Positions 6,657 to 54,010 of a stretch of 64,000 nucleotides of DNA are shown piece after piece. How positions within the stretch are numbered: position 1 is the first letter of the stretch; every line of letters begins with the position of its first letter. The stretch is from Saccharofermentanales bacterium (GTDB lineage Bacteria; Bacillota; Clostridia; Saccharofermentanales; DTU023). Under the pieces are notes generated by a model. That model was not told where the DNA came from. It did no database searches and worked only from the letters and a program-made list of their open reading frames with translations. Where the stretch lies: assembly GCA_050945515.1 (NCBI GenBank), contig JBMNTB010000004.1, forward strand, positions 2,113 through 66,112, read 5' to 3'. The position numbers were made by a program, and so were the translations under genes.

Positions 6657-7967
6657 ATGAGTAAAATAAAAGCAGTTCATTATCTTAATCAATTCTTCGC
6701 TCAGATCGGCGGTGAAGAAATGGCCGATATTGAGCCAGAACTCCGGGAAGGGCTGATTGGGCCTGGCATTGCGCTTCAACAGGCCTTGGGTGCCGATTAT
6801 GAGATCGTAGCTACAGTAATCTGTGGCGATAACTACTTCGGCAGCAATCTGGAAGAGGCCCAAAGCAGAATTCTGGAACTGATTAAGCCCTACAGTCCGC
6901 AATTATTTGTAGCAGGACCCGCATTTAATGCCGGCAGATATGGTGTCGCTTGTGGTACAATCGCCACCGCCGTCGAAAAGGAATTTGGCATACCTGCCCT
7001 GACCGGCATGTATGTAGAGAATCCCGGCGTTGAAATGTTCAAAAAAGATCTTTATATCATTGAAACAGCAAATTCGGCGGCAGGTATGAGAAAGGCAATG
7101 CCGAAAATCGCCAATCTGGCCCAAAAGCTGATTAACGGTGATGAAGTAGGACCGCCCGCAGAAGATGGCTATCATGAGCGAGGAATCCGTGTCAATTATT
7201 TCCACGACAAAAGAGGATCTACCAGAGCTGTTGATATGCTGTTGCAAAAAGTCAAGGGGGAGGAATATCAGACCGAATATCCCATGCCATTCTTTGATCG
7301 TGTGCCTCCTGCCACACCGATTATAGACATGTCGAAGGCTAAAGTGGCCATTGTCTCTTCCGGCGGTATCGTACCGGTTGGCAATCCAGACCGGATTGAG
7401 TCCTCCAGTGCAACTAAATTCGGCAAATATGATGTCACCGGCATGGACCGCATGAGCAAAAACGACTTCATCTCCATCCACGGCGGTTATGATACTGCGT
7501 ATATTCTGGAGGATCCGAACCTGGCTATACCGCTCGACGTCCTCAGAGAAATGGAAAAAGAAGGTCAGATTGGAGAGTTAGCCAATTATTTCTACTCTAC
7601 TACAGGCACCGGTACTTCCGTTGGCAATGCCGAAGTCTTCGGTACTGAGATCGGCAAGCAACTGCTGGCGGATGGTGTGACCGCAGTCATTCTCACCTCT
7701 ACCTGAGGAACCTGTACACGTTGCGGTGCAACGATGGTTAAAGAGATTGAAAGATACGGCCTCCCTGTAGTTCACATGTGCACAATAGTACCCATTTCCC
7801 TAACAATCGGAGCTAATAGAATCGTACCTACTGTCGCCATCCCCTATCCTCTAGGTGATCCTCATCTCGGTGAAGAAAAGAGCAAGAATTTAAGACGCCA
7901 TCTGGTCGAAAGAGGGCTAGACGCCCTGCAGACAGAAGTCGACGGACAAACCGTTTTTGAAGAATAA
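6657..7967 (+). CDS. grdB: Selenoprotein B of glycine/sarcosine/betaine reductase (GrdB/GrdF/GrdH family), 436 aa with Sec at UGA 7704-7706
   Basis: HYLNQFFAQIGGEE N-terminus. ACC-TGA-GGA-ACC-TGT-ACA-CGT-TGC reads TSTUGTCTRCGATM (UxxCxxC motif) and runs in frame into the 7734..7967 ORF. The symbol is family-level only. Confidence 0.93.
7707..7740 (+). promoter_or_regulatory. Bacterial SECIS element
   Basis: Hairpin CGTTGC-GGT-GCAACG lies just 3' of the in-frame UGA, within the coding sequence. Confidence 0.75.
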
Positions 7968-8008
7968 GCGCCAGGGCAGATACATCCGCTCTGACAATCG
8001 TAAGCAAG

Positions 8009-8989: not shown

Positions 8990-9010
8990 TACTATGCATA
9001 AGGAGTGAAA

Positions 9011-9733
9011 ATGAAAGCTGATCCGGGCAATGAAATCGTACGCCGAGTCTATGCTGCTAAAACAGATAATGCGGAAGCAGATGACTTGATCGTGGATTAT
9101 ATGGGTTTCATCAAGGCAGAAACAGCCCGTCATTTGGGCCGTTTCTGTACGGATCAAGATGATGAACTCAGCATCGCCATGCTTGCTTTTTACGATGCCA
9201 TTCAGAAATATGATCACAATAGTGGTGCTTTTATCAGCTTTGCCGGCCAAATTATCAGAAACAGGCTGATCGATTATAGTCGGCGGGAAAATAGGCATCG
9301 CAAAGTGATCTCGCTGGATCAGCCGTTAGAACAAGACGCAGAAGGTGTGCCGACAACCATGGCAGATAGGCTCCCGGAACCGAAATCAGCGGATAGTGAG
9401 CTCCAGCAACAAGCGGCAGCTTCTGAGATCTCAGAACTAAAAACACAGCTTAAAGATTATGGTATATCGCTTGCGGATGTTGTTGATCAATCTCCCCGGC
9501 AAAAGCGCAGTCTCAAGATCTGTCAAGAGGCGGTCCGCTATGCCAGGGAACATCCGCAACTGATCCAAACCCTGTTGAAAACCCGCAAACTGCCTCTGAG
9601 CGAGCTTTCCAGCGGTGCCAATGTAGCACGAAAAACACTGGAACGCCATCGTAAGTATCTGATTGCCCTGCTACTGGTCTACAGCAACGGCTATGATAAT
9701 ATCAGAGACCACCTGAAGGCTATGACCCTGTGA
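9011..9733 (+). CDS. sigI: RNA polymerase sigma factor SigI
   Basis: DDELSIAMLAFYDAIQKYD...FISFAGQIIRNRLIDY region 2 and TLERHRKYLIA C-terminal signature; AGGAG RBS. Confidence 0.9.
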   Translation: MKADPGNEIVRRVYAAKTDNAEADDLIVDYMGFIKAETARHLGRFCTDQDDELSIAMLAFYDAIQKYDHNSGAFISFAGQIIRNRLIDYSRRENRHRKVISLDQPLEQDAEGVPTTMADRLPEPKSADSELQQQAAASEISELKTQLKDYGISLADVVDQSPRQKRSLKICQEAVRYAREHPQLIQTLLKTRKLPLSELSSGANVARKTLERHRKYLIALLLVYSNGYDNIRDHLKAMTL

Positions 9734-9749
9734 TAAATACGAGGCCAAT

Positions 9750-10772
9750 ATGAAATATTTAATCTTAGAATGTACTGAAAATGACGCTATTGCCCTCGAT
9801 GATGAGGGACGCTTCCTGCGTGTCGTCAATAATGATTATCAGGTGGGTCAAAAAGTTGAGCGGGTCACCTTATCACTGGCCAATAGCCGCAGACCGTCGA
9901 GGATAGTTTACTTTGCGCGCTCACTGTCTGCTGTGGCTGCTTCACTGATACTAGCCTTCTTCATTTATTATCTGATTGCTTTGCGCCCGGTCTCAACAAT
10001 TAATCTGGCAATCAATCCTGAAGTCACGATCAAATTAAATTCTCGGCACAAAGTCATCTCCCTCCAGGCCGAAAATCAAGATGCGGAAAATATAATTGCA
10101 GATTATTCCTATCGTGGCAAGACCGGGCATCAGGTGGTTTTGGATCTGGTCAGCGAATCGATCAGACAGGATTTCCTATCTGATGGCGGGAGAGTTTTAA
10201 TCACAGGCGACCTGTCCGGCAAAATCGTGGCAGAAGAATGGGCACATCAATTACAAAGTGATATCGACCGCCTTCTCTACCGCAACAACATCCATATTGC
10301 ACTCAAAATCGGTGTCTATGACCCCTCTCTGCGTTGGCTGGTCGATTATGCCTATGGACCTTTCGAGACCGAACCTGAGCCTGAAGAACCTACTAACCCC
10401 GAATCCGATTACAACAGTTCCTATGATGACGACGATAATACAGATAAGACCGGACATCAGGCAGACCCCGATTCTGACAGCACCTCGACCAAGCCGGCCC
10501 CAACACCTGATCGGACCAAGTCGACACCCGGGCAAACCAAGCCAACACCTAAGCAGACCATACCGGCCACATCACCTGTGACGACAAAACCTGCTCCGAA
10601 AGCGACGCCAACCACGGCTCCTACCAGCAGGCAGACTGCTGCACCAACATATGATGATGACGACACTGACTACGACGACCTCGATGATGACAACAACTAC
10701 GACGATCCCAATGATGACGACAGCGAATACGATGATCAGCCGGATGACGACAGTGAATATGATGATGACTGA
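9750..10772 (+). CDS. rsgI: Anti-sigma-I factor RsgI (RsgI_N, TM, periplasmic domain, Pro/Thr linker, acidic tail)
   Basis: N-terminal LDDEGRFLRV, one TM segment, and INP motif (AINPE). It lies immediately downstream of sigI. Confidence 0.85.
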   Translation: MKYLILECTENDAIALDDEGRFLRVVNNDYQVGQKVERVTLSLANSRRPSRIVYFARSLSAVAASLILAFFIYYLIALRPVSTINLAINPEVTIKLNSRHKVISLQAENQDAENIIADYSYRGKTGHQVVLDLVSESIRQDFLSDGGRVLITGDLSGKIVAEEWAHQLQSDIDRLLYRNNIHIALKIGVYDPSLRWLVDYAYGPFETEPEPEEPTNPESDYNSSYDDDDNTDKTGHQADPDSDSTSTKPAPTPDRTKSTPGQTKPTPKQTIPATSPVTTKPAPKATPTTAPTSRQTAAPTYDDDDTDYDDLDDDNNYDDPNDDDSEYDDQPDDDSEYDDD

Positions 10773-10921
10773 TTGAAGTATATACACGAAAGAACTTAGC
10801 CACCGACACAAAAAAGAATATGTCAACTCGGATTTCACATTGTGTGTGCTTGTTTCAGTTGCAACTTTTAGTATTTCTAAAGAAATAATGTTATAATTTC
10901 TTTAGGAAGGTGGTGAGCGGG

Positions 10922-11194
10922 ATGCCGAAAATTCGTTCCAGTACAGATTTAAGAAATAACTACAATGAGATCTCCGCTTTTTGCAACGAAACAGATGAGC
11001 CTGTATTTATTACCAAGAACGGTCGAGGAGATCTCGCAGTAATGAGCATAGAACTATACGATAAGCTTATTAATAAACAAGAGCTCTATCGTTTACTTAA
11101 TGAGGCCGAAGAGGATTTCAAATCCGGTAATGAGATGAGCTTCGACGAGTCACTCCAGGAATTGCGCCAAGCTTTAGGAGATGTGACAATCTGA
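10922..11194 (+). CDS. Type II toxin-antitoxin Phd/YefM antitoxin
   Basis: IRSSTDLRNNY...PVFITKNGRGDLAVMS signature. Confidence 0.9.
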   Translation: MPKIRSSTDLRNNYNEISAFCNETDEPVFITKNGRGDLAVMSIELYDKLINKQELYRLLNEAEEDFKSGNEMSFDESLQELRQALGDVTI

Positions 11195-11280
11195 TGAAAC
11201 AGTATAAGGTTTTAGTCAGTCGCAGATACCATCAGGACCTTAAGGCTATCCTCGGGGCGCTGTCGCAGGTTTTAATTTAA
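11194..11280 (+). pseudogene. Truncated RelE/ParE-type toxin remnant (28 aa)
   Basis: TGATG overlap with the antitoxin stop. MKQYKVLVSRRYHQDLKAI resembles the RelE/ParE N-terminus, then the frame runs into the 3' end of the convergent DUF554 gene and stops. Confidence 0.65.
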
Positions 11281-11994
11281 TATTGCGGTTAAAAGGGCTG
11301 TTACGAGCAAGCCGGGCAGAAAATTTGCCACTTTGATTTTGGTCTGCCAGAGCATATTGATGCCGATACAACAGATCATCAGAGAGCCGACAAAGGAGAG
11401 ATTGAAGATCAGGATATCACTGAGACACGGCTCGATCAGACCCGCCAGCAGTGTAATGCTACCCTGATATAAACCCATGGGCAAAGCGGCAAATAGCACG
11501 CCCACACCCAGACTGGAAGCCAAAACCAGACAGATAATACCATCCAGGGCAGACTTGGCATAGAGCATGGTAGGGTCACGAAGCAGGGCATCCTGAATGG
11601 AGCCTACTATTGCCATAGCTCCAACACAAATGATAACCGTCGCGGTGACAAAGCCTTCGACAAATTTATTATTGCCATCTCCGGCTTTGACTAAAGTCTT
11701 CAAACGTTCTCCGATTGAGTTCAGACGCTCTTCAAGGCGCCACCATTCTCCCAGAAAGGCGCCTATCACCAGACTGCCAATCATCAGCAGTGTATTTTGC
11801 GTCTCCAGCATAGTGCCGTTGACTGTCAGCAGACCGCGCAGGCCACCGGTAATGCCCACAAAGAGAACGGACAATCCCAGCGCCTGCAGCAAAATCTGTT
11901 GAAATCGTTCTTTGAGGCCGTGCTTGAGCAAGAGTCCTACTCCGCCACCTACGACGACAGCGGCAATATTGACAATTGTTCCCAAGCCTGCCAA
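11272..11994 (-). CDS. DUF554 family membrane protein
   Basis: GTIVNIAAVVVGG...FVTATVIICVGAMAIVGSIQDAL...YAKSALDG signature. Confidence 0.9.
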   Translation of the reverse strand: MAGLGTIVNIAAVVVGGGVGLLLKHGLKERFQQILLQALGLSVLFVGITGGLRGLLTVNGTMLETQNTLLMIGSLVIGAFLGEWWRLEERLNSIGERLKTLVKAGDGNNKFVEGFVTATVIICVGAMAIVGSIQDALLRDPTMLYAKSALDGIICLVLASSLGVGVLFAALPMGLYQGSITLLAGLIEPCLSDILIFNLSFVGSLMICCIGINMLWQTKIKVANFLPGLLVTALLTAILN

Positions 11995-12008: not shown

Positions 12009-15000
12009 CTACATAATAGCGGCAGCCAGGCGCCGGCGCAGCATCTCGAGAGCATAGTCGATCTGTTCCGGTTTATGAGCCGAAGTCAGGCAATAGCGCA
12101 GCCTCGCCTGCCCCATAGGCACAGCCGGGAAGATAGCCGGCGGCACGATTATGCCGTCGTCCAGCATTTCGATACTGAGTTTGAAAGCCAGATCATCCGG
12201 CCCGATCATGATCGGTATAATCGCTGTATCCTTGGCCAGACAGGTATTAAAGCCATATTCGTGTGCCCGCTTCATGAAATAAGCGATATTGTCCTGGAGT
12301 GCTTTTACGCGGCTGTTATCCCTTTCCATGATTTCCAGCACTTTGAGCACGGCACCGGTCAGGGCGGGACTAAGTCCGACCGAGAAAGTAAAGCCCGGCA
12401 GATTATAGCGCAGATAGTCAATCAACAGTTTATCCGCTGCCAGATAGCCGCCGCAAGCGCCAAGACCCTTGGACAGAGTTCCCATCTTGATGTCAATATC
12501 CGAGGGGGCAAGATCGAAGTATTCGTCCACACCTTTGCCGGTCTCACCCAATACACAGGCCGAATGCGCCTCATCAACCATCAGGAAACAGCCGTATTTC
12601 TTTTTGATCCGCACAAATTCGGGCACCGGAGCGACATCTCCATCCATGCTGTAGGCACCTTCAACTACGATCAGCACTTTCTCATATTCATCGCGGTGCT
12701 CCTTGAGGAAATTCTCCAACTCTTCATAGTCATTATGAGGGAAGAACCGGCTCCTGGCCCGCGAGAGCATAAGACCCTGAATCACAGAATTATGACTCAG
12801 CCTGTCATAGATAATCAGATCGCCGGACCCGCAGAAATTGCCCACGAAAGTAACATTGGTAGCATGTCCGCTGACCAGGACCAGAGCATCCTCCGTACCC
12901 TTCCAGCGGGCGATCGCAGCCTCGAGGTCTTTATGGATATCTTTTTCGCCGGCAAGCAGCCTGCTGCCGCTGGCCGAAGTACCGTATTTCTCTACTGCTG
13001 CAATCGCAGCAGCATTGACCTCGGGATCGCCCGACATAGCCAGATAATTATATGACCCCAGATTGATCATTTCGCGCCCGCCCATATAGGATACATCCTT
13101 AAGAGCAGATTCTTGCGAAATGAAATAGGGATTTTGCATATTGCTGCTGGCCAGCAACTGTTCAGAACGTTGGACAAATTGCTTAATTTCTCTGATTTTT
13201 TCGAAGGCGTCAACTCGCTCTTCCGGCGTCTTCGCCCGCCCGTCCGTGCTGATGCCGGCTTTCCTTCCCGGCTTATAATCTGTACCGGACAGGTGTTCAT
13301 GGATAAGTGATGTAATATCATTGAGATTCATGCAGCTATAATACTGATCATCAACGATGGCAATATTGTATTCGCGCTCCAAGAGATTGAGCAAAGTCAG
13401 GCTGGAGAGACTGTCTCCGCCCAGATCGAGCACAAAATGCCCGTTATCTGTGACTTCTTCCAGCTTAATATCCAGTGCTTCGGCAAAGAAACCGCGGATA
13501 GTTTCCTTGATTTTTTCTTTACTAATGGTGTCGGCATCGGCCTTGGCGCCGCTTTCCGTATCCGGAGCAGGTTCAGCTTTGTCGGCTGCTCCCACTGCCG
13601 CCGGCGGCGGGGCAGTCGGCACCTCCGGGATCGCAGCCTGTTGGTCAGATGATATAGTCATGCCGGCAGCCTTCGCTTCCAAATACCGGGATAGAGTGAG
13701 TACCGGCCACTGTCCGGCGTTCAATTGTTTGGACAGCAGCTGACGCTTAACTTTCCTGGTGGTGGAAAGCGGTAGCGGTGCGAGACTAACCAGCACATTG
13801 CTGATGGCAGAGGATGGCGGCAATTTAACCATGCGAGCTTTTACCGCCTGGTCCAGTTCAGCCGGGTCGGCCTCAGGAGCCACTTCGAGCAGCAGATTGG
13901 CATATTCATAGTCGCCGTCCCGCACGCCGACGACAGACATTTGTTGTACGCCGGGCAAATCCTGGAAATTCGCTTCGACGGTGTCGGGATAGATATTTTC
14001 TCCCGAGGGCCCGATAATTACCTCTTTCAGACGACCATCAATCATGATAGCGCCATCAACCAAGCGCCCGATATCACCGGTGGGAAACCAGCTATCACCC
14101 GTGTAATCTACTGCCCGGAATTGGCCGCTCTTGAGCACACCGATATGGATGCTGCGTCCGCGCAGCAGGATTTCACCTGCGGGTGAGATCATCATATTGT
14201 CAGGTTCAAAGGGACGGCCGACATTGCCATTGCAGCGCAGGTCAATATCTTCCGTATTGCAGACTGAGATAATGCTGCCTTCTGTCATCCCGTAACCGGA
14301 ACTGAGATAGTAGCCTAAGCCATTGATGACGCGCAGCGTCTGAGCGGGAATATAGCCACCGCCGCTACAGCCGAGATAAACATCATCACCTAACAGTTGA
14401 TTGCGAATGGACTTAAGTTTCGGAGCATAATAAAAAGGCACTTTTCTGCCTGCCGCTTGGGCTTTAAGGCTGGCATCGATCATCTTGTCGAAAGCAGCTA
14501 CGGTTTTCTCACCTTCTATCTGGCGGATCCGGCGATAAAGTCCCTTGACCACCGCATTCCAGAACAAAGGTATGCTGATCACCTGGGTGACCCGATGCTT
14601 GCGACAGCTCTCCAGAATTACTTCCGGGGCCAGACTGGGAATGAAAATAAAGGTATTGCCGAGCACATAGGTCAGCATAAATACCGCCATCAGGCCGAAT
14701 ATATGGTGGAAAGGCAGGAATGCCAGGCATTTCTCATTCACTCCCGGCCGCACCCAGCGGTCTGTCTGATCGGAAAGCCTGATCAGGCAGGTAGCTAGAT
14801 TTAGAATACAGCCGCTGTCATGGACAAAGATCCTCGCATCCCCGGTAGTGCCGCTAGTGCAAAGAGCGATTCTGTCGCCCCAGCTTGTTTCCTCCGGAAA
14901 GCTGTCTGCTTCAGCGATCAGATCGGCAGCGGCCAGATAGGCAAAATCCTCATACAGCTTATCCGTGATCAGGGTTTCAGTGCCGGCTTGGGCCATCATT

Positions 15001-15329
15001 TCAATGGCATCATCCGTATTCTGCATTGAATTGAGCAAGAGCAAATCAAAGCCGGCAGCTAGGATGGCCCAAAACAAAATACAAAATTCAGGACCGTTGG
15101 GCAGCTTGAGGGCGACAAATTTTTCTTCGCTCTTAACCACTTCACGAATTTTTCCGGCACAGCCCATAACTTTCCGTTCATATTCCTCGTAGGAAAGCTG
15201 GACTAATTGCTCCTGCTTATAATATTCAAAAATATTCTTGCCACGGCCATTACGCATCATCATAGCGAAAAGATCGGCAAAATCTTGTGATACTTTCAAA
15301 TCATGTATCAGTTTTTCAATTACATTCAT
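12009..15329 (-). CDS. Tri-domain fusion: long-chain acyl adenylation (AMP-binding) domain + acyl carrier protein + PLP-dependent alpha-oxoamine synthase (SPT/BioF family)
   Basis: A-domain motifs CTSGTTG, YGMTEG, TGDIG and GENIYP. ACP motif LGGDSL (Ser codon 13410-13412). AOS motifs LGSYNYL, GSRLLAG, DEAHS and GTLSK (Lys codon 12468-12470). GAGGTG RBS before ATG 15329. Confidence 0.9.
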   Translation of the reverse strand: MNVIEKLIHDLKVSQDFADLFAMMMRNGRGKNIFEYYKQEQLVQLSYEEYERKVMGCAGKIREVVKSEEKFVALKLPNGPEFCILFWAILAAGFDLLLLNSMQNTDDAIEMMAQAGTETLITDKLYEDFAYLAAADLIAEADSFPEETSWGDRIALCTSGTTGDARIFVHDSGCILNLATCLIRLSDQTDRWVRPGVNEKCLAFLPFHHIFGLMAVFMLTYVLGNTFIFIPSLAPEVILESCRKHRVTQVISIPLFWNAVVKGLYRRIRQIEGEKTVAAFDKMIDASLKAQAAGRKVPFYYAPKLKSIRNQLLGDDVYLGCSGGGYIPAQTLRVINGLGYYLSSGYGMTEGSIISVCNTEDIDLRCNGNVGRPFEPDNMMISPAGEILLRGRSIHIGVLKSGQFRAVDYTGDSWFPTGDIGRLVDGAIMIDGRLKEVIIGPSGENIYPDTVEANFQDLPGVQQMSVVGVRDGDYEYANLLLEVAPEADPAELDQAVKARMVKLPPSSAISNVLVSLAPLPLSTTRKVKRQLLSKQLNAGQWPVLTLSRYLEAKAAGMTISSDQQAAIPEVPTAPPPAAVGAADKAEPAPDTESGAKADADTISKEKIKETIRGFFAEALDIKLEEVTDNGHFVLDLGGDSLSSLTLLNLLEREYNIAIVDDQYYSCMNLNDITSLIHEHLSGTDYKPGRKAGISTDGRAKTPEERVDAFEKIREIKQFVQRSEQLLASSNMQNPYFISQESALKDVSYMGGREMINLGSYNYLAMSGDPEVNAAAIAAVEKYGTSASGSRLLAGEKDIHKDLEAAIARWKGTEDALVLVSGHATNVTFVGNFCGSGDLIIYDRLSHNSVIQGLMLSRARSRFFPHNDYEELENFLKEHRDEYEKVLIVVEGAYSMDGDVAPVPEFVRIKKKYGCFLMVDEAHSACVLGETGKGVDEYFDLAPSDIDIKMGTLSKGLGACGGYLAADKLLIDYLRYNLPGFTFSVGLSPALTGAVLKVLEIMERDNSRVKALQDNIAYFMKRAHEYGFNTCLAKDTAIIPIMIGPDDLAFKLSIEMLDDGIIVPPAIFPAVPMGQARLRYCLTSAHKPEQIDYALEMLRRRLAAAIM

Positions 15330-18599: not shown

Positions 18600-19820
18600 A
18601 TGAATACTTCCCGTCCTTTCCTGCCCGTCATCCTTGGCACTGATATCAATACTTACGGCATGGCTCGCTCTTTCCATGAAGCATACGGTCTGCGTTCACT
18701 TGCCTTAGGCCGGCTGCGCCAATATGCAACATCCGATTCGGCCATTCTCGACGTCAATGTCTATCCAAACTTTGATACCGACCCGACTTTCCGCAAGCAA
18801 ATGCTGCAAATAGGTCAGGAGCTCAGCCGGCGCGGTCTGCCTCTGCTGCTGGTCCCCTGCTCGGATACCTATGTTGAACTTGTAAGCAGAAACCGTGAAA
18901 TATTGGAACCATATTTTCTCTTCAACTGTGTGTCGGAAGAACTGCGCCAAAAACTTGAGAATAAGCAAGACTTCTACCGCAGCTGTGCCGAACATGGACT
19001 GCCCTGTCCGGAGACCGCAGTCGTCAACAAATACTCCTTCCGCACTGTAGAATTGCCCTTCGACTTCCCGATCGCCGTCAAGGCCGATGACAGCATCGCT
19101 TATTTCCATCTGCACTTTGCCGACAAGAAAAAAGCTTATCAAGCTGCAAATCGAACGGAGCTGATGCAAATTCTGGAAACTATTTATGAGGCAGGCTACA
19201 GCGGCGACATGATTCTGCAGGACTTTATCCCCGGAGGCATGGAGAACATGTATGTCTTGAATGCCTATGTCGACCGGACAGGCCGGGTACGCATGACCTG
19301 CACCGCCCGCTGCGCTTTGGACGAATGCCTCCCTGCCGATATCGGCAATTACAATGCTCTGATCAGCGGCGATTATCCCGCAGTTGATGCCCAATGCAAG
19401 TCTTATCTGGAGCAGATCAACTACCGTGGCTTCGCCAACTTTGACCTTAAGTACGACCATCGCGATGGCCGGTACAAAGTCTTTGAACTCAATCTAAGGC
19501 AAGGCAGATCCAGTTTCTATACAACTGCCGCCGGCACTAATTTGGCCACTTGGCTCGCCGCTGATTTGCTTGGCGAAGGCGCTATAAAATATGTTCGCTG
19601 CACAGAGGAATATTTATGGCTGAACGTAGCTAAGAGAGTATTGCTCAACTATGCACCCTCTGCATTGAAGCCCGATCTCAAGCGACTGCTAAAAATAAAA
19701 AAGGTCAGCTATACACTGGATTATGCTCAGGATCGTTCATTGCGAAGACGCTTATCGCTGCTGAGGCGTAAATTATCAACACTCCGTTATTATCCGCATT
19801 TTTGCAGCAAAGAAAAATAA
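18600..19820 (+). CDS. ATP-grasp carboxylate-amine ligase, D-aspartate ligase (Aslfm/YxbA)-like
   Basis: PVILGTDINTYGMARSFHEAYG N-terminus, ILQDFIPG, FANFDLKYD.RDG.YKVFELNLRQGRSSFY. Confidence 0.8.
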   Translation: MNTSRPFLPVILGTDINTYGMARSFHEAYGLRSLALGRLRQYATSDSAILDVNVYPNFDTDPTFRKQMLQIGQELSRRGLPLLLVPCSDTYVELVSRNREILEPYFLFNCVSEELRQKLENKQDFYRSCAEHGLPCPETAVVNKYSFRTVELPFDFPIAVKADDSIAYFHLHFADKKKAYQAANRTELMQILETIYEAGYSGDMILQDFIPGGMENMYVLNAYVDRTGRVRMTCTARCALDECLPADIGNYNALISGDYPAVDAQCKSYLEQINYRGFANFDLKYDHRDGRYKVFELNLRQGRSSFYTTAAGTNLATWLAADLLGEGAIKYVRCTEEYLWLNVAKRVLLNYAPSALKPDLKRLLKIKKVSYTLDYAQDRSLRRRLSLLRRKLSTLRYYPHFCSKEK

Positions 19821-47561: not shown

Positions 47562-48560
47562 CTATTCTTCACTCAAAGGCTGAATTTTGATCGCATCTTC
47601 CATCATGGTATTGAAATCATCTTCGGTCATGGTGCCAAGCACATTGTTCAGCGCCGTCAGGAGAACGGCATTGCCTTTCATGACTGAAATACCGATATTG
47701 ACATTCTCTGCTCTGACTTCGTCCGAGAACTGGAAATCGCCGTCCGTACCCGAGAAGTCCAGAATTTTCATCTCCGGATAGGCAACCACGGCACCCTGGG
47801 CTGTCGGCAGATCAGTGCAGACAAAGTCCACAGTACCGGTCGCCAGTGCCATCAACATGGCCGGCACGTCCGAAGACTTCAGCGGGATTTCGATATCGGG
47901 GATCTGCGGCAGACACTGATCAAACCAAATCGTACCTTCTTGAGCCGTACCTCTGCCGCCCGCCAGATCGGCGATGCCCTGGGCAGCAGCAAACTTACTA
48001 TCTTCTCTGGTCAACACTACCATCGTGGCATAGAAATAAGGTCCGGCGAAATCCACCTGTTCAGAGCGCTCGGCTGTCATGGACTGGCCGGCAATAACTG
48101 CGTCAAAAGTACCTGTCATCACGCCCGGTACCAGTGAATCCCAATCGGACTGTATAATCTCCAGCTCCCAGCCATTGGCTTCACAAAGTATCTTGGCCAT
48201 CATCACATCATAGCCATTGGCAAAAGCGCCCGGTGAATTGCTGATCGGCACTGCACCATTGGAATCATCCTGCTGTACCCAATTGTAAGGCGCATAGGCA
48301 CATTCCATCGCGACAGTCAGAACACCGTCCTCAACACCTGTGGGCACGCTCTGAGCTTCCGGTGCAGTCGTCTCAACGCCTTCTGCCTCAGTGGTTTCCT
48401 CCGCCTCTGCTGCAGTGGTATCCTCCTGTTCAGCTTCTGCGCCGGCGGTGGCTTCGACTTCCGCCTCTGTAGCTGCTTCAGTCGCAGCAGAATCTGACTT
48501 CCCGCAAGCTACCAACGCCAACAACATCACTACTGCGAGAAATAAAGCAATCTTTCTCAT
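47562..48560 (-). CDS. Polar amino acid (probably lysine) ABC transporter substrate-binding lipoprotein
   Basis: Lipobox LVAC, Ala/Glu/Thr linker, ECAYAPYNW and GYDV motifs; downstream of a lysine riboswitch. Confidence 0.9.
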   Translation of the reverse strand: MRKIALFLAVVMLLALVACGKSDSAATEAATEAEVEATAGAEAEQEDTTAAEAEETTEAEGVETTAPEAQSVPTGVEDGVLTVAMECAYAPYNWVQQDDSNGAVPISNSPGAFANGYDVMMAKILCEANGWELEIIQSDWDSLVPGVMTGTFDAVIAGQSMTAERSEQVDFAGPYFYATMVVLTREDSKFAAAQGIADLAGGRGTAQEGTIWFDQCLPQIPDIEIPLKSSDVPAMLMALATGTVDFVCTDLPTAQGAVVAYPEMKILDFSGTDGDFQFSDEVRAENVNIGISVMKGNAVLLTALNNVLGTMTEDDFNTMMEDAIKIQPLSEE

Positions 48561-48660: not shown

Positions 48661-48699
48661 CATGGAAATCGGATAATATTCGATCAGTGCCGATGCCAT

Positions 48700-48861
48700 C
48701 GATAGCGCTCCACAAAAGCTTGTGACAGTTCGTCAGATCTTATCTGCCGACCCAGCTCCGGAAAATCAGGCCCTCTTCCGAAACTTCGGCGATTTCCCCT
48801 TTTATATCGACGGTGACCTGCCTTGCCGATAGTACTCTTGAAAACCGCGCCTCTACCTAAA
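48700..48861 (-). ncRNA. Lysine riboswitch (L-box)
   Basis: The minus strand reads GTAGAGGCGCG...AAGAGTA...AAAGGGG..GCCGAAG...CTGGG...ACTGTC...GGAGCGCTA, the conserved L-box core in the correct order. Confidence 0.9.
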
Positions 48862-48879
48862 GCGATTCAATTTCGTGCA

Positions 48880-49019: not shown

Positions 49020-51122
49020 ATGAGACGTACAGACTATTGCGGTCTGATGACCGAGGCAGATATTGGCAAAGATGCCGTCGCCTGCGGCTGGGTAGCCAAT
49101 AAAAGGGATATGGGCGGCGTCATTTTCATTGATCTGGTTGACCATACCGGCGTACTGCAGATTGTCTTTAATCCGCAAAATACGGATCAGAACTCTTTCC
49201 GCCTGGCGGAAACAGTGCGCAACCAGTCAGTAATTGCCGTTTCAGGCTGGATGCGTTTGCGCGATGAAGAGACAGTCAACCCCAAGATCAAGACGGGTAC
49301 GATTGAGCTGCAGGTGCGCCAGGCCGAACTGCTGTCCGCTGCCGGCTCACTGCCCTTCAATCCCGTCGAAGATCATAGTGTGCGGGAAGATCTGCGGCTG
49401 AAATATCGTTTCCTTGATTTGCGCAGCGAACGTCTGCAGAAAAATCTGCGTTTCCGGCATCGGATAGCTAAAGCAATCCGCGATTTCATGGATGAGGAAG
49501 GATTCATTGATGTCGAAACGCCGATGCTGACTCAGAGCACACCGGAAGGCGCCCGCGACTACCTGGTGCCCAGTCGTGTTCATCCCGGCAGTTTCTATGC
49601 TTTGCCACAGTCACCTCAGATTTTTAAACAGCTATTGATGGTGGGCGGCATTGATAAATATTATCAGATTGCCCGCTGTTTCCGTGATGAAGATCTGCGG
49701 TCGGACCGTCAGCCCGAGTTCACTCAGCTGGACCTGGAGATGGCCTTCGTTGAACAAGAAGATGTGCTCGCACTGCTGGAACGTCTGTTCAAATATGTGA
49801 TGAAAACAGGGATAGGTCTGGACATACAGGAGCCTTTCCCCCGGCTGACCTGGGAAGAAGCCATGGACACTTACGGTGTCGATAAACCGGACCTGAGATT
49901 TGAACTGCCGATCATTGATCTTACCGAGATTGCTGCCGAATCGGATTTTACCATTTTTAAGCAGGCAATCAAGGCCGGCGGTGTTGTAAGAGCCATTGTC
50001 GTACCGGGTCAAGCCGATTTCACCCGCAGTACGATCGACCATCTGACTGAATTTGCTATTGAGCAGGGAGCAGGAGGCATGGCCTGGATCGCCTGGCGTC
50101 CTGACGGCGAGATTTACTCCATCCTGACCAAATATTTCTCCGACGAAACCATGCAAAAACTGTTAGCAAAGGCCGGAGCACAGCCCGGCGACTTCATTCT
50201 CTTTTCGGCGGACAAAGTGGCCAAAGCCCGCAAAATCCTGGGTGCTATCCGACTTGAACTGGCAGATCTGCTGGAACTGAGAGATGATTCATATCGTTTC
50301 CTGATCATCACCGATTTCCTAATGTTCGAATACAGCGAAAGCGAAAAGCGTTACCTGGCCCAGCATCATCCGTTCACCATGCCGTATGCGGAGGATATTC
50401 CCTATTTGAAATCGGAACCGGAGCGGGTACATTCGCAGGCCTACGATGTCGTCCTCAATGGCACGGAGCTTGGCTCAGGTTCGATTAGAATTCATGACAG
50501 CGAGGTGCAGCGCCGGGTCTTCAAGGTACTGGGCCTGTCTGAAGCGGAGATTGAACAACGCTTCGGCTTTATGCTCAACGCCTTTGCCTACGGCACACCG
50601 CCCCATGGCGGCTTCGCCTTCGGTCTTGACCGCCTGGTTATGATCCTGCTGGGAGAAGATTCCCTACGCGAAGTAATCGCTTTCCCCAAGACAAAAGATG
50701 CTTCTTGTCTCCTGACCGGTGCGCCTGACCGCGTAGACCGCGAACAATTGGATGAACTCGGCCTCTCCCTGATTGCCGGATTATCAGAGAGCGACCAGCC
50801 GCCAGCAGCCGGCTCCGGCACCGGGAGAAAGCCGATAGAGTTCGATATCAAGCGCCTGGCCCAGATCTCCCGCCTGCGCTTTGATGAGACAGAGCTGACA
50901 CAAATCAGCGAATATCTGGCCGATACCATAGACTGGGCCAGTCAGATAGACAGCATTGATACAGCGGAGTTGGCCCCGACTGATAATGTATATGAAGCCG
51001 CCAATGTGTTCCAAACTGCCGCGATCCCGACCGGTCCGACTCGCGATGAACTGTTGGCAAATGCGCCTGTCAGCCGCGACGGCTGCTTTTTCGTACCTGA
51101 AGTGATTGCATTGGAGGAGTAG
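49020..51122 (+). CDS. aspS: Aspartate-tRNA ligase fused C-terminally to GatC
   Basis: RLKYRFLDLR, TPEGARDYLVPSR, QSPQIFKQLLM, FRDEDLR.DRQPEFTQLD and PPHGG..GLDR. After a 20-aa linker comes a GatC-like domain (IKRLAQISRL...LLANAP...FFVPEV) from about 50832. Confidence 0.9.
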   Translation: MRRTDYCGLMTEADIGKDAVACGWVANKRDMGGVIFIDLVDHTGVLQIVFNPQNTDQNSFRLAETVRNQSVIAVSGWMRLRDEETVNPKIKTGTIELQVRQAELLSAAGSLPFNPVEDHSVREDLRLKYRFLDLRSERLQKNLRFRHRIAKAIRDFMDEEGFIDVETPMLTQSTPEGARDYLVPSRVHPGSFYALPQSPQIFKQLLMVGGIDKYYQIARCFRDEDLRSDRQPEFTQLDLEMAFVEQEDVLALLERLFKYVMKTGIGLDIQEPFPRLTWEEAMDTYGVDKPDLRFELPIIDLTEIAAESDFTIFKQAIKAGGVVRAIVVPGQADFTRSTIDHLTEFAIEQGAGGMAWIAWRPDGEIYSILTKYFSDETMQKLLAKAGAQPGDFILFSADKVAKARKILGAIRLELADLLELRDDSYRFLIITDFLMFEYSESEKRYLAQHHPFTMPYAEDIPYLKSEPERVHSQAYDVVLNGTELGSGSIRIHDSEVQRRVFKVLGLSEAEIEQRFGFMLNAFAYGTPPHGGFAFGLDRLVMILLGEDSLREVIAFPKTKDASCLLTGAPDRVDREQLDELGLSLIAGLSESDQPPAAGSGTGRKPIEFDIKRLAQISRLRFDETELTQISEYLADTIDWASQIDSIDTAELAPTDNVYEAANVFQTAAIPTGPTRDELLANAPVSRDGCFFVPEVIALEE

Positions 51123-51125
51123 CAG

Positions 51126-52574
51126 ATGGATATGCAGAAGATGAATCTAACACAAATGGCGAAGGCTTTGCGAGCCGGAGAATTCTCGGCTGTCGAGTTG
51201 ACCCGCCACTATTTGGCACAGATCGAAGCCCGGGATAAATCAATCAATGCCTATATCACTGTCACTGCCGACCAGGCACTGGCCCAAGCGGCTCAAGTTG
51301 ACCGGGCTCTGATGTCGGGTCAGGACTTGCCGCCTTTGGCCGGCATCCCTCTGGCACTGAAAGATAATATCTGCACTGAGGGAATCCTGACTACGGCAGC
51401 TTCGAAAATGCTCTCTAATTTTGTGCCGCCATACAGCGCCTATGTCTGGCTGAAACTACAGGAACAGATGGGTGTGCTGTTGGGCAAGACTAATCTCGAT
51501 GAACTGTCTTTAGGTACAACTACCGAGTCTTCACTTTTCGGGCCGACGAAAAATCCGCTGGACCTCACCCGCATTCCCGGCGGTAGTTCAGGCGGCTCAG
51601 CCGCTGCCGTAGCCGCGGGAACTGCGGCCTACGCTCTCGGCACTGATACCGGCGGCTCTGTACGTCTACCGGCCGCCCATTGCGGACTGGTCGGTATGAG
51701 ACCGACTTACGGCCTCGTCTCCAAGCGTGGCATCATACCTCTGGCTCCCTCTATGGATATGGTAGGCCCCCTGACGCGCAGCCTGGCTGACAATGCCCTG
51801 GTTCTAAATGCCATTGCCGGCCATGATGCCCAGGATGCCACATCCGCAGACAGGGCGATACCGGATTTCAGCGCCGGACTGAGCAAAGGTGTCAACGGCC
51901 TGCGCATTGGCCTGACCCTTGACCATCTGGAAACCAAAGTCACAGCAGACTTCAAAGCAGCTATCCTCAAAACAGCGGCAGATCTGGAAACATCCGGAGC
52001 CAAAATCGTCGAGCTGGCCCCACGGCAACTGGAAAGCGCCTTTCCGGTCTATTATCTGCTGTCAAGTGCTGAAGTTTCCTCCGGCCTCGGCCGTTTGGAC
52101 GGCATCCATTATGGCTACCGCAGCTCTGATTATGAAGATCTGGAAGATATTTACTACAACAGTCGCAGCGAAGGCTTTGGCCCGGAGGTTAAGCGCCGCA
52201 TCATGCTGGGCAACTTTGTACTCAGCGCCGACTACTATGAAGCTTTCTATGTCAAAGCACAAAAGGTCAGAACTTTCATCAAAAACGAATTTGACAAAAT
52301 GCTGGAACAAGTCGATCTGATTTTACTGCCGACAACAACGGATGTTACGCCGAAACTGGGAGCAAAAAAGAGTAAAGAAGATACCCGCAACGTTAATTTT
52401 TTCAGCGTTCTGGCACCTCTAACCGGTCTGCCGGCGCTGTCTGTCCCTACCGGCTCGCGGGTAGAGAATCTGCCGGTCAGCGTACAGCTGATCGGGCCTG
52501 CTTTCAGTGAAGCTCTACTATATCAGGCAGGTGCTGCTATTATGGACGGTACCGGAGAGGAGACTGCACAATGA
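51126..52574 (+). CDS. gatA: Asp/Glu-tRNA amidotransferase subunit A
   Basis: Amidase signature KDNI, GGSSGGS, GTDTGGS, GPEVKRRIMLG. Confidence 0.93.
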   Translation: MDMQKMNLTQMAKALRAGEFSAVELTRHYLAQIEARDKSINAYITVTADQALAQAAQVDRALMSGQDLPPLAGIPLALKDNICTEGILTTAASKMLSNFVPPYSAYVWLKLQEQMGVLLGKTNLDELSLGTTTESSLFGPTKNPLDLTRIPGGSSGGSAAAVAAGTAAYALGTDTGGSVRLPAAHCGLVGMRPTYGLVSKRGIIPLAPSMDMVGPLTRSLADNALVLNAIAGHDAQDATSADRAIPDFSAGLSKGVNGLRIGLTLDHLETKVTADFKAAILKTAADLETSGAKIVELAPRQLESAFPVYYLLSSAEVSSGLGRLDGIHYGYRSSDYEDLEDIYYNSRSEGFGPEVKRRIMLGNFVLSADYYEAFYVKAQKVRTFIKNEFDKMLEQVDLILLPTTTDVTPKLGAKKSKEDTRNVNFFSVLAPLTGLPALSVPTGSRVENLPVSVQLIGPAFSEALLYQAGAAIMDGTGEETAQ

Positions 52575-54010
52575 CTAAATATGAAGCGGTCATCGGGCTC
52601 GAAGTGCATGTCGAGCTGATGACGGAGCGCAAGATCACCTGTTATTGCAAAAATGAATTCGGAGCTGAACCGAATGTCAATACCTGCCCGATTTGCCTCG
52701 GCATGCCCGGAGCACTGCCGATGTTAAACCGCCAAGCGCTGGAATTTGCCATCAAAGCCGGCCTGGCCTGTCATTGTGAGATTGCACCCTACTCGCAGAT
52801 GGAGCGCAAGAATTACTTTTATCCCGATCTGCCCAAAGCCTATCAGATCACCCAGGGTCAGCACCCGCTCTGTATCGGCGGCTATCTCGACATTGAGACC
52901 CGCGCCGGCAAAAAGCGCGTTCGTCTCAATCGCATTCATATCGAAGAAGATGCCGGCAAGCTCATCCATCTGGAAGGCGAAGGCACCCTGGTCGATCTCA
53001 ACCGCGCCGGTGTTCCCTTGATTGAAATCGTCACCGAGCCTGATCTGAGCTCGCCTGAAGAAGTCGATGCCTTCTTGCGCAAGATCCGCGCCATGGTACA
53101 GTACACCGGTGTCTCAGACGGCCGGATGGACCGCGGCTCCATGCGCTGTGATGTCAATCTCTCTATCCGCCCGGCAGGCACGGAGGAACTGGGCACCCGC
53201 ACAGAGATGAAGAATCTCAACTCTTTCAATTTCGTGACGAAGGCGCTTGAGCATGAATATCAGCGACAGGTCGAAATCCTCGAATCCGGCGGCGTGATCG
53301 AGCAGGAGACCAGGCGCTTCGACTCAGCTACCGGCACTTCCTCTTCTTTGCGCAGCAAGGAAGATGCCACGGACTACCGTTACTTCCCCGATCCTGATCT
53401 GGTACCGATCCTAGTCAGCCCGGAAGAAGTGGCCGCCATCCGGGCCACGATTCCCCGCCTGCCCGACGTCCGGATCGCAGAATATGTTGAACGTTGGGAA
53501 CTCCCCGAATACGATGCCAATCTCCTGACCAATGACATCAGGATTGCCGATTTCTTTGAAGAAGCAGCTGTACACACGAACTATCCCAAGATCGCAGCCA
53601 ATCTGATCATTGCCGATCTGCTGCCGGGACTGGCTGAAGAAGGCGATGTACCGCTGGCACCCGAACAGCTGTCGGTTTTATCCGATTTGCTGGGAACAGA
53701 AGAGATCAATAGCAATACCGGGCGCAAAGTCTTCAAGACCATGATCAGCTCTCAGGATCAGATTGATCCCCTCGCCTATGTCGAAGAGCATCAGCTCAAA
53801 CAGATTAATGATCCTGAAATACTGGCAGGCTATGTCACAGAAGCCCTGTCCGCCAGTGCCAAAGCAGTCAAAGACTACCGCAGGGGTAAGGAAGCCGCTC
53901 TCAGATCAATTATCGGCCAGGTGATGCGAGCCACCTCCGGCCGGGCCAATCCCATCCTGACGGAAGAGATGATCAAAGACAAGATCGCCGCCCTGCCCGA
54001 GCCTGAGTAA
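52571..54010 (+). CDS. gatB: Asp/Glu-tRNA amidotransferase subunit B
   Basis: IGLEVHVEL, RKNYFYPDLPK.YQI, HIEEDAGK, RCDVN and YRYFPDPDL. Confidence 0.96.
   Translation: MTKYEAVIGLEVHVELMTERKITCYCKNEFGAEPNVNTCPICLGMPGALPMLNRQALEFAIKAGLACHCEIAPYSQMERKNYFYPDLPKAYQITQGQHPLCIGGYLDIETRAGKKRVRLNRIHIEEDAGKLIHLEGEGTLVDLNRAGVPLIEIVTEPDLSSPEEVDAFLRKIRAMVQYTGVSDGRMDRGSMRCDVNLSIRPAGTEELGTRTEMKNLNSFNFVTKALEHEYQRQVEILESGGVIEQETRRFDSATGTSSSLRSKEDATDYRYFPDPDLVPILVSPEEVAAIRATIPRLPDVRIAEYVERWELPEYDANLLTNDIRIADFFEEAAVHTNYPKIAANLIIADLLPGLAEEGDVPLAPEQLSVLSDLLGTEEINSNTGRKVFKTMISSQDQIDPLAYVEEHQLKQINDPEILAGYVTEALSASAKAVKDYRRGKEAALRSIIGQVMRATSGRANPILTEEMIKDKIAALPEPE

Follow-up and report, generated by a model that had tools for sequence, protein, structure and literature searches.

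Results

The locus and the fusion gene

The present study concerns a 64,000-nucleotide stretch of DNA (hereafter the window) from Saccharofermentanales bacterium (assembly GCA_050945515.1, contig JBMNTB010000004.1, positions 2,113 to 66,112), and in particular one of its genes, which encodes an adenylation domain, a carrier protein domain and a pyridoxal phosphate (PLP)-dependent alpha-oxoamine synthase (AOS) domain in a single polypeptide. Three genes lie in a row on the minus strand, namely those for a PALP-family PLP enzyme, for this fusion protein and for a DUF554 membrane protein (Table 1). The fusion gene is real and intact, and chance is excluded by 923 database matches to its product at E<=0.001. 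The plus-strand translation of 12009-15329 contains many stops; on the minus strand the frame is open from 15341 to 12009, translation probably begins at the ATG at 15329, with a GAGGTG ribosome-binding site four bases before it, and the stop codon occupies 12011-12009. A preliminary description of this DNA had reported a 1106-residue, three-domain open reading frame (ORF) in a Firmicute at this place; its coordinates, length, domains, motifs and PLP residues all stand, as does the host, a Clostridia-type member of the Bacillota, and the correction to be made is that the gene lies on the minus strand.

Table 1. Coordinates of the three-gene row and of the domains of the fusion protein in the window
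Feature	Position	Strand	Basis
PALP, PLP fold-type II enzyme of the D-cysteine desulfhydrase/ACC deaminase family, 338 aa	15408..16424	-	Pfam PALP; 78 nt upstream of the fusion gene
Tri-domain fusion gene (adenylation + carrier protein + AOS), 1106 aa plus stop	12009..15329	-	Open frame on the minus strand only; three Pfam domains; AlphaFold2 model
Adenylation domain, ANL superfamily, residues ~1-556	13662..15329	-	Pfam AMP-binding; invariant core motifs
Carrier protein domain, residues ~604-681, predicted phosphopantetheine site Ser640 in GGDSL	13287..13520	-	Pfam PP-binding; invariant S640; model helices within 604-680
PLP-dependent AOS domain, residues ~703-1106, predicted Schiff-base Lys954	12012..13223	-	Pfam Aminotran_1_2; PDB phmmer; Foldseek; motifs
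DUF554 membrane protein gene	11272..11994	-	Pfam DUF554, E=7e-74; TTG start at 11994, 14 nt after the fusion stop; GAGGA ribosome-binding site

The three domains of the fusion protein were recognised by Pfam as AMP-binding (residues 42-381, E=4e-30), PP-binding (610-675, E=6e-11) and Aminotran_1_2 (753-1096, E=5e-49), and the motifs GGDSL (637-641), LGSYNYL (757-763) and GHATN (821-825) are present. The AlphaFold2 model, with a mean predicted local distance difference test score (pLDDT) of 77, consists of three folded domains and two disordered linkers (567-600 and 682-702), the former within an Ala/Pro-rich linker at about 557-603 that was modelled as disordered (pLDDT<50 at 567-600). Residue invariance, here and below, refers to an alignment of 27 diverse homologues with 39-71% identity. 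The adenylation domain carries the complete set of ANL superfamily motifs (A3 TSGTTG, A5 GYGxTE, A7 TGD, A8 GRxKD..GENIYP and the A10 lysine), and TSGTT 158-162, T349-E350, D419, R433/K435, GEN-YP 443-448 and K526 are invariant. The carrier domain shows the PP-binding fold and the GGDSL motif familiar in the carrier proteins of nonribosomal peptide synthetases (NRPS), in which the invariant S640 is the predicted phosphopantetheine site. The adenylation domain diverges much faster than the AOS domain, with 28-36% identity across the family compared with approximately 60%. When the full model was searched with Foldseek, most matches were to the AOS domain, and nothing could be learned about the acid pocket of the adenylation domain.

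Identity of the AOS domain

Membership of the AOS superfamily is supported by the invariant residues H846 (the PLP-stacking histidine), D919 and H922 (the Asp/His pair of D-E-A-H), K954 (the Schiff-base lysine in G-T-(L/F)-S-K) and R1078 (the carboxylate-binding arginine close to the C-terminus), and by Foldseek target TM-scores of 0.83-0.91 to solved AOS structures. Within the superfamily, the domain reaches the curated cut-off of no NCBIfam equivalog model. The scores were 348 bits for the bioF model TIGR00858 (cut-off 426), 315 and 271 bits for the Kbl models (cut-offs 460 and 493) and 151 bits for the CqsA-type model NF005526 (cut-off 428), which places the domain outside BioF, Kbl and CqsA/LqsA. 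When the proteins of the PDB were searched with phmmer, the best matches were Thermus ThAOS (257 bits), human SPTLC2 (237 bits), E. coli Kbl (228 bits) and the serine palmitoyltransferase (SPT) of Sphingobacterium, SmSPT (225 bits), followed at lower scores by E. coli BioF (165 bits), SulA/CapB (156-158 bits) and CqsA (75 bits). In a tblastn search of plasmid records, AOSs associated with carrier proteins or polyketide synthases (PKS) ranked at the top with 44-49% identity, and BioF, Kbl and Bacteroidales Spt-like proteins reached 34-38%. Pairwise identities point in the same direction, with 29% to E. coli BioF, 36% to Bacillus BioF, 35% to E. coli Kbl and 43-49% to the carrier-protein-associated AOSs.

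A neighbour-joining tree was built with four carrier-protein- or PKS-associated references, namely the AOSs of a Pseudomonas plasmid and of a Paraburkholderia cluster, a carrier protein-AOS didomain (CP-AOS) from a B. cereus plasmid and a 1607-aa Streptomyces protein, and with E. coli Kbl, E. coli BioF, Bacillus BioF and a B. finegoldii Spt-like gene as outgroup references. In the Pseudomonas plasmid cluster the AOS gene directly follows a type I PKS and a short-chain dehydrogenase/reductase (SDR) is part of the cluster; the Paraburkholderia cluster is similar. The window AOS formed one clade with the Clostridia-type tri-domain and stand-alone AOSs (100/100 bootstrap). This clade was sister to the carrier-protein/PKS-associated AOSs, and the joint group stood apart from BioF, Kbl and the Bacteroides Spt-like protein (100/100). 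Both parts of the joint group have in common SYNYLG, GH(A/S)TNV, SHNS, EGxYSMDGD, DEAHS, GTLSK, PGFxFSVG and YPAV, with minor substitutions in a few of the proteins; in BioF and Kbl the corresponding motifs read SNDYLG or NNYLG and GFAANQ or CFDANG, and it is because these motif sets differ that the tree separates the two parts of the joint group from BioF and Kbl. The active-site motifs of the window AOS do not differ from those of relatives linked to an SDR gene. The lysine that distinguishes SulA (Lys281, 30 residues after the catalytic lysine) corresponds to Val984 here, and the position is Val or Ala across the family, which sets it apart from SulA/CapB; Val or Ala is likewise found there in SgaB-like and Spt enzymes.

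Judged by its sequence, the window AOS is not a BioF, Kbl, canonical Spt, SulA or CqsA as those families are now defined. The preliminary description had considered the domain closer to the SPT- and PKS-associated type than to BioF and Kbl, and the motifs, the tree (100/100), the NCBIfam scores and the PDB ranking all agree with it. A grouping with BioF, which it had named as an outcome that would overturn its proposal, was not found with either of the two BioFs in the tree (100/100), and the motifs differ.

Size and distribution of the family

The fusion family is a real, widespread, unstudied and large uncharacterised group. In 118 of the 120 best database matches listed (clusters at 90% identity), the match spans 86% or more of the query, the three Pfam domains are the same and identity is 37-91%; the source databases give the homologues generic names only. 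The rarity of the architecture implied by the preliminary description does not hold, in view of more than 900 tri-domain homologues, mostly in uncultured Clostridia, and an adenylation-carrier-AOS (A-CP-AOS) order catalogued in 2013 (PMC3870968). When a genome collection with a single genome for each species was scanned, at least 598 related loci were obtained, of which 80 were kept; ORFs were called and clustered in 81 loci. The kept loci come mostly from uncultured Clostridia (Christensenellales, Oscillospiraceae, Saccharofermentanales and Clostridiaceae), with a minority from a few Bacteroidales, one Treponema and a separate Planctomycete group of the same architecture. The closest relatives are metagenome-assembled genomes labelled Clostridiaceae or Bacillota, some of them from anaerobic-digester or fermentation samples, and one cultured carrier was found, Clostridium sp. 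19966 (locus L006), whose fusion gene adjoins an SDR gene. In addition, stand-alone AOS and CP-AOS genes whose products are 56-63% identical to the window AOS occur in Clostridia and Tissierellia, and some of them adjoin the same SDR gene as is described in the next section.

Several observations on more distant members were made in passing. The Planctomycetota loci (L059-L081, from Pirellulaceae and others; e.g. L070:10001-12148) encode proteins of 1137-1199 aa in the same A-CP-AOS order, with a very divergent adenylation domain whose C-terminal part matches a DIP2-like FAAL domain and an AOS about 48% identical to that of the window; at several of these loci one neighbour reads as ribosomal-protein-L13-like and none is an SDR. 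On Bacillus cereus-group megaplasmids (L085, plasmid CP009368.1, 162.6-171.4 kb), a compact unstudied cluster consists of genes for a glycosyltransferase, a CP-AOS 47% identical to the window AOS, a methyltransferase, an ABC transporter and a phosphopantetheinyl transferase (PPTase). Finally, at two unrelated loci a three-gene ABC transporter (ATPase, permease, lipoprotein) lies beside the tri-domain gene of a Mageeibacillus (L005:13388-15974) and beside a stand-alone AOS gene of the Tissierellia (L044:6712-9173); it reads as methionine-type by sequence, and its position may be a coincidence.

A KdsR-like reductase beside the AOS gene in relatives

Of the 53 non-Planctomycete related loci, 22 have an SDR of a single orthologous group next to the AOS gene, with the two genes sharing a strand in 21, as determined with a profile built from the SDR itself. 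Elsewhere in the flanks of +/-10 kb it was found at one locus only, three genes away from the AOS gene. This SDR is the only widely recurrent neighbour and the commonest partner in the relatives. The best NCBIfam model for it is NF049977, the 3-ketodihydrosphingosine reductase KdsR, to which three members scored 320, 237 and 194 bits, above every generic SDR model. Since a KdsR-like SDR adjoins the AOS gene in these relatives, sphingoid-base synthesis is supported for the family. Other neighbours also have to do with lipids: in the sister clade closest to that of the window, genes for an acyl-ACP-thioesterase-like protein (a weak match in Pfam), for GDPD and for an MFS transporter are found upstream in divergent orientation, and DegV fatty-acid-binding proteins are encoded at several related loci.

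Partners in the window lineage

The PALP gene, which is missing from the preliminary description, may be co-transcribed with the fusion gene. Its best NCBIfam scores, 258 bits for ACC_deam_rel, 256 for XcbE and 255 for CuyA, are all below the cut-offs, and its best PDB match is a D-cysteine desulfhydrase (178 bits). It lies directly upstream of the fusion gene in 4/4 fetched members of the window clade, that is, the window and three relatives of 67-71% identity, among which both flanks differ. Three PALP homologues of 45-48% identity are found in unrelated contexts and are not linked to AOS genes. Among related metagenome-assembled genomes, members of the PALP cluster lie on contigs of 1.75 Mb and 0.58 Mb.

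The DUF554 gene is probably in the same transcript as the fusion gene. The preliminary description had placed it 14 bp downstream, exactly where the TTG start is found, and had proposed it as a candidate partner. This proposal is weak, the adjacency being confined to the window clade: DUF554 directly follows the fusion gene in three of the five window-clade places (the window, P0007 and L036, the last of 80% identity), in P0005 it is split from the fusion gene by hydantoinase genes and in P0004 it is not in the fetched flank. Neither PALP nor DUF554 was found at any related locus outside the window clade, and it is possible that both are lineage-specific partners rather than defining parts of the system. 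Scanning for promoters and terminators performed no better than on shuffled sequence, and no terminator was found in the 78-nt gap between the PALP and fusion genes; a search upstream of the operon for a T-box or riboswitch gave nothing above noise.

Surroundings in the window

The contig derives from a JGI metagenome. The operon is bordered by genes of the opposite orientation, one side being occupied by an SNase-like nuclease and the other by a Phd/YefM antitoxin and SigI/RsgI. The remainder of the 64 kb carries housekeeping genes, including those for glycine reductase, PheRS, Opp transporters, asparaginase, H+-PPase, AspRS-GatCAB, Trk and polyamine synthesis. No bio genes occur in the whole window, as the preliminary description had stated for the vicinity of the gene. 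A foreign island was considered and rejected, the GC content of the locus (0.50-0.52) being within the spread of the window and tRNA genes being absent.

Several features of the surroundings are recorded for their own sake. The GrdB gene of glycine reductase (6657-7970, plus strand) is a selenoprotein gene with an in-frame TGA at 7704-7706, in the context TST-U-GTCTRCG, directly followed by an Rfam SECIS_4 element (7707-7744, 64 bits); ORF callers split it into pieces of 349 and 77 aa. A lysine riboswitch (Rfam RF00168, 102 bits, 48695-48863, minus strand) precedes an amino-acid ABC transporter operon of SBP_bac_3, permease and ATPase genes (47562-48560 and downstream), which probably serves lysine-regulated uptake. 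The AspRS gene (49020-51122, plus strand) encodes a C-terminal GatC (Pfam, residues 621-692 of 700) and is followed by GatA and GatB genes (51126-54010); the fusion suggests a hard-wired transamidosome. The SigI/RsgI-like sigma/anti-sigma pair (9005-10772, plus strand) lies on the opposite strand just past the DUF554 end of the operon, and the Phd/YefM-type antitoxin gene (10910-11194, plus strand) stands between the RsgI and DUF554 genes and has no called toxin gene next to it. A 406-aa ORF at 18600-19820 (plus strand) has only a sub-threshold ATP-grasp-like match, and it is conserved, with 404 aa, in the same relative position in the P0005 locus.

Discussion

Proposed mechanism

Herein, we propose that the fusion gene encodes a one-polypeptide, carrier-protein-dependent AOS line that would join an acid, most likely a fatty acid, and an amino acid, most likely serine, to give a sphingoid-type aminoketone, and we assign this reading a probability of roughly 0.55. 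The ANL domain would adenylate a carboxylic acid in free form, the likeliest being a fatty acid of long chain, and transfer the acyl group to the phosphopantetheine arm on Ser640 of the same polypeptide, an arm that would have to be installed by a PPTase encoded elsewhere. The AOS domain, expected to be a homodimer like other AOSs and to bind PLP on Lys954, would take up an amino acid, L-serine being the likeliest, as an external aldimine, and a decarboxylative Claisen condensation with the acyl-S-carrier would give a long-chain 2-amino-3-ketone resembling 3-ketosphinganine and regenerate the holo carrier. In many relatives the adjacent KdsR-like SDR would then reduce the 3-keto group to a sphinganine-like base; in the window lineage such a reductase is not nearby, and the operon partners are a PLP enzyme of the D-cysteine desulfhydrase family and DUF554. 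The parts of this proposal differ in strength. Acyl loading and aminoketone formation are very likely; a long-chain fatty acyl substrate, to which the gene context points, is fairly likely; a sphingoid-type lipid as the end product would have about an even chance; and L-serine as the amino acid, suggested by analogy with PfSgaB (described below) and by the KdsR-like partner, is a tentative assignment at slightly less than even odds.

Relation to known systems

In Caulobacter and other Rhodobacteria, a dedicated acyl-ACP synthetase, a dedicated acyl carrier protein (ACP) and Spt (AasR/AcpR/Spt) act in trans in sphingolipid synthesis (PMC9386255). The same three activities occur there in the same order, with an acyl-ACP used by a PLP-dependent AOS for the sphingoid backbone; however, AasR, AcpR and Spt are three separate genes and the window encodes one polypeptide, the window AOS scores 227-274 bits with the proteobacterial Spt equivalogs (cut-offs 500-670), and no bCerS/CerR genes lie near the fusion gene. 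The sphinganine cluster of Pseudomonas fluorescens MYb115 consists of the iterative type I PKS SgaA, the AOS SgaB and the SDR SgaC, and PfSgaB has SPT activity with acyl thioesters and L-serine, with a near-exclusive preference for L-serine (PMC12134224). The likeness to SgaABC lies in an AOS of the carrier-protein-associated clade with common diagnostic motifs, an acyl group held on a carrier protein and an SDR partner in relatives, whereas the acyl chain is built by a PKS there and would be loaded by an adenylation domain in the window protein. By analogy, the fusion protein would be the cis-fused counterpart of AasR/AcpR/Spt and the adenylation-loaded counterpart of the PKS-loaded SgaAB route.

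The SulA/CapB cysteate acyl-ACP transferases of Bacteroidota, with the SulA signature Lys281 (PMC9304779; PDB 7u7h, 28eh), are likewise acyl-ACP-dependent AOSs that make a sphingoid-like base, but the window AOS has Val984 at that position, matches their structures at lower scores, and SulA is without a fused loader. BioF, Kbl and Thermus ThAOS, the last of which is the best match among solved structures, have the fold and the PLP residues in common with the window AOS; BioF and Kbl differ in their motifs, in equivalog scores that the window AOS does not reach and in a biotin or threonine-degradation context, which is absent here. The A-CP-AOS architecture itself already appears, for example as Synechococcus B1XHP8, in a survey of assembly-line PLP domains from 2013 (PMC3870968). 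The order of adenylation, carrier and Aminotran_1_2 domains is identical, but the catalogued proteins are treated as parts of NRPS/PKS secondary-metabolite systems, whereas in the Clostridia family a single gene stands alone among genes of housekeeping or lipid function. PigH/RedN-type proteins are CP-AOS components of assembly lines.

No description of the Clostridia fusion family or of a Firmicute sphingoid route was found in the literature searched, most subscription-journal papers being outside the search, so that absence is not proof; the statement in the preliminary description that such a route would be undescribed agrees with this.

Points that weigh against the proposal

Several results speak against the sphingoid reading. 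For the adenylation domain, similarity to solved acyl/aryl-CoA ligases is weak and generic (best 67 bits), so that the assignment of its acid substrate is tentative. For the AOS domain, the NCBIfam Spt equivalogs CFB, Beta and Alpha gave 306, 274 and 227 bits against cut-offs of 640, 500 and 670, which excludes membership of these families; failing these cut-offs says nothing on an SPT-like function of the fusion AOS. The tree is a neighbour-joining tree with only four outgroup references, the SgaB-like AOS compared (43-46% identity) comes from another Pseudomonas and was assigned by cluster organisation rather than by alignment to PfSgaB, and amino-acid specificity is not readable from sequence. 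As for the partner enzyme, the SDR scores are below the 400-bit cut-off of the KdsR model, no adjacent SDR was found in the window clade or its nearest sister clade, and BLASTP (E<1e-3) found no KdsR-like SDR in the 64-kb window, in which no PPTase or N-acyltransferase was found either. The preliminary description had envisaged a self-contained sphingoid line and a search for a ketoreductase and an N-acyltransferase beyond the gene. For the first of these, the tri-domain protein is intact, but self-sufficiency is a weak claim for this genome, the 64 kb being without reductase, PPTase and N-acyltransferase; the second found neither enzyme in the window. The sphingoid idea is plausible; it is strengthened at the level of the family by the KdsR-like partner and is weaker for the window locus.

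Alternative explanations

The same chemistry with another amino acid is the most probable of the alternatives: glycine or alanine would give 1-deoxy bases, and cysteate or cysteine would give a capnine-like sulfonolipid base or a thio-analogue, with PALP supplying or recycling the substrate. The PALP protein matches the cysteate-handling CuyA and XcbE about as well as the generic family model, its gene has kept its place next to the fusion gene in each of the four fetched window-clade members despite rearranged flanks, and ThAOS, the closest solved AOS by sequence, is described as promiscuous, using various amino acids and acyl-CoAs. We nevertheless regard this explanation as unlikely. The known members of the D-cysteine desulfhydrase/ACC deaminase family are beta-eliminating lyases and not synthases. 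All PALP scores are below the model cut-offs, its homologues of 45-48% identity are unlinked to AOS genes and PALP is absent from the related loci of the genome collection. The cysteate variant in particular is disfavoured because the position of SulA Lys281 (PMC9304779) is Val984 here, and Val or Ala across the family; the cysteate/sulfonolipid reading was set aside on this residue and on the finding that PALP travels with the AOS only inside the window clade. Less probable again is an aminoketone that serves as a diffusible signal or secondary metabolite, such as a CqsA/LqsA-type alpha-hydroxyketone or an alkylpyrazine formed by spontaneous dimerisation, with DUF554 as its exporter. The lack of a reductase or N-acyltransferase at the window locus, the membrane protein gene 14 nt downstream and the fact that, outside Clostridia, the most closely related AOSs belong to PKS-type or small biosynthetic clusters are consistent with such a product. 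However, the scores with the CqsA-type model (151 against 428 bits) and with CqsA structures (75 bits) are low, no conserved sensor kinase is nearby in the window or the three fetched relatives, the fusion gene stands among housekeeping genes of ordinary base composition rather than in a biosynthetic cluster, and the commonest partner in relatives is KdsR-like.

A fused biotin enzyme, an analogue of BioW-BioF that activates pimelate and condenses it with alanine to 7-keto-8-aminopelargonic acid (KAPA), is very improbable. The bioF model does give the highest NCBIfam score, JGI names some homologues '8-amino-7-oxononanoate synthase/acyl carrier protein', and a natural BioW-BioF fusion exists (PMC9544090). 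Against this, the bioF score of 348 bits is below the 426-bit cut-off, identity to E. coli and Bacillus BioF is lower than to the carrier-protein-associated AOSs (29% and 36% versus 43-49%), GSYNYLA and GHATNV stand where BioF has SSNDYLG and GFAANQ, and there are no bio genes in the window or beside any relative. The fold of BioW also differs from that of an ANL enzyme with a carrier protein. The biotin reading was rejected on scores, motifs, tree and gene context.

Implications for anaerobic Bacillota

Returning to the proposed synthesis of a sphingoid-type aminoketone, the family probably lets anaerobic Gram-positive bacteria make sphingosine-like bases. A wider hypothesis, which we put forward as possible rather than likely, is that anaerobic Bacillota of the rumen, gut and digesters (Christensenellales, Oscillospiraceae, Saccharofermentanales and Clostridiaceae-like organisms) make sphingoid bases de novo with a fused loader/carrier/SPT-like enzyme and a KdsR-like reductase, and that the window lineage represents a sub-variant with a C-S-lyase-type PLP enzyme and DUF554, possibly with another head group or fate. 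Bacterial sphingolipids are at present attributed to Bacteroidota, Chlorobi and some Proteobacteria, and predicted for a few Actinobacteria (PMC12134224); those of gut Bacteroides reportedly modulate both the immunity and the sphingolipid metabolism of the host (PMC9278070). The cultured carrier Clostridium sp. 19966 makes the sphingoid question directly testable. If the proposal is true, the fusion protein would offer a compact biocatalyst, one polypeptide sufficing to make an aminoketone from a free fatty acid and an amino acid, and metagenomic surveys that count canonical Spt genes only would underestimate sphingolipid capacity. Moreover, sphingolipid-type lipid synthesis would extend to Gram-positive anaerobes, and the uncultured Clostridia of the rumen, the gut and anaerobic digesters would be a large, abundant and unrecognised source of sphingoid lipids.

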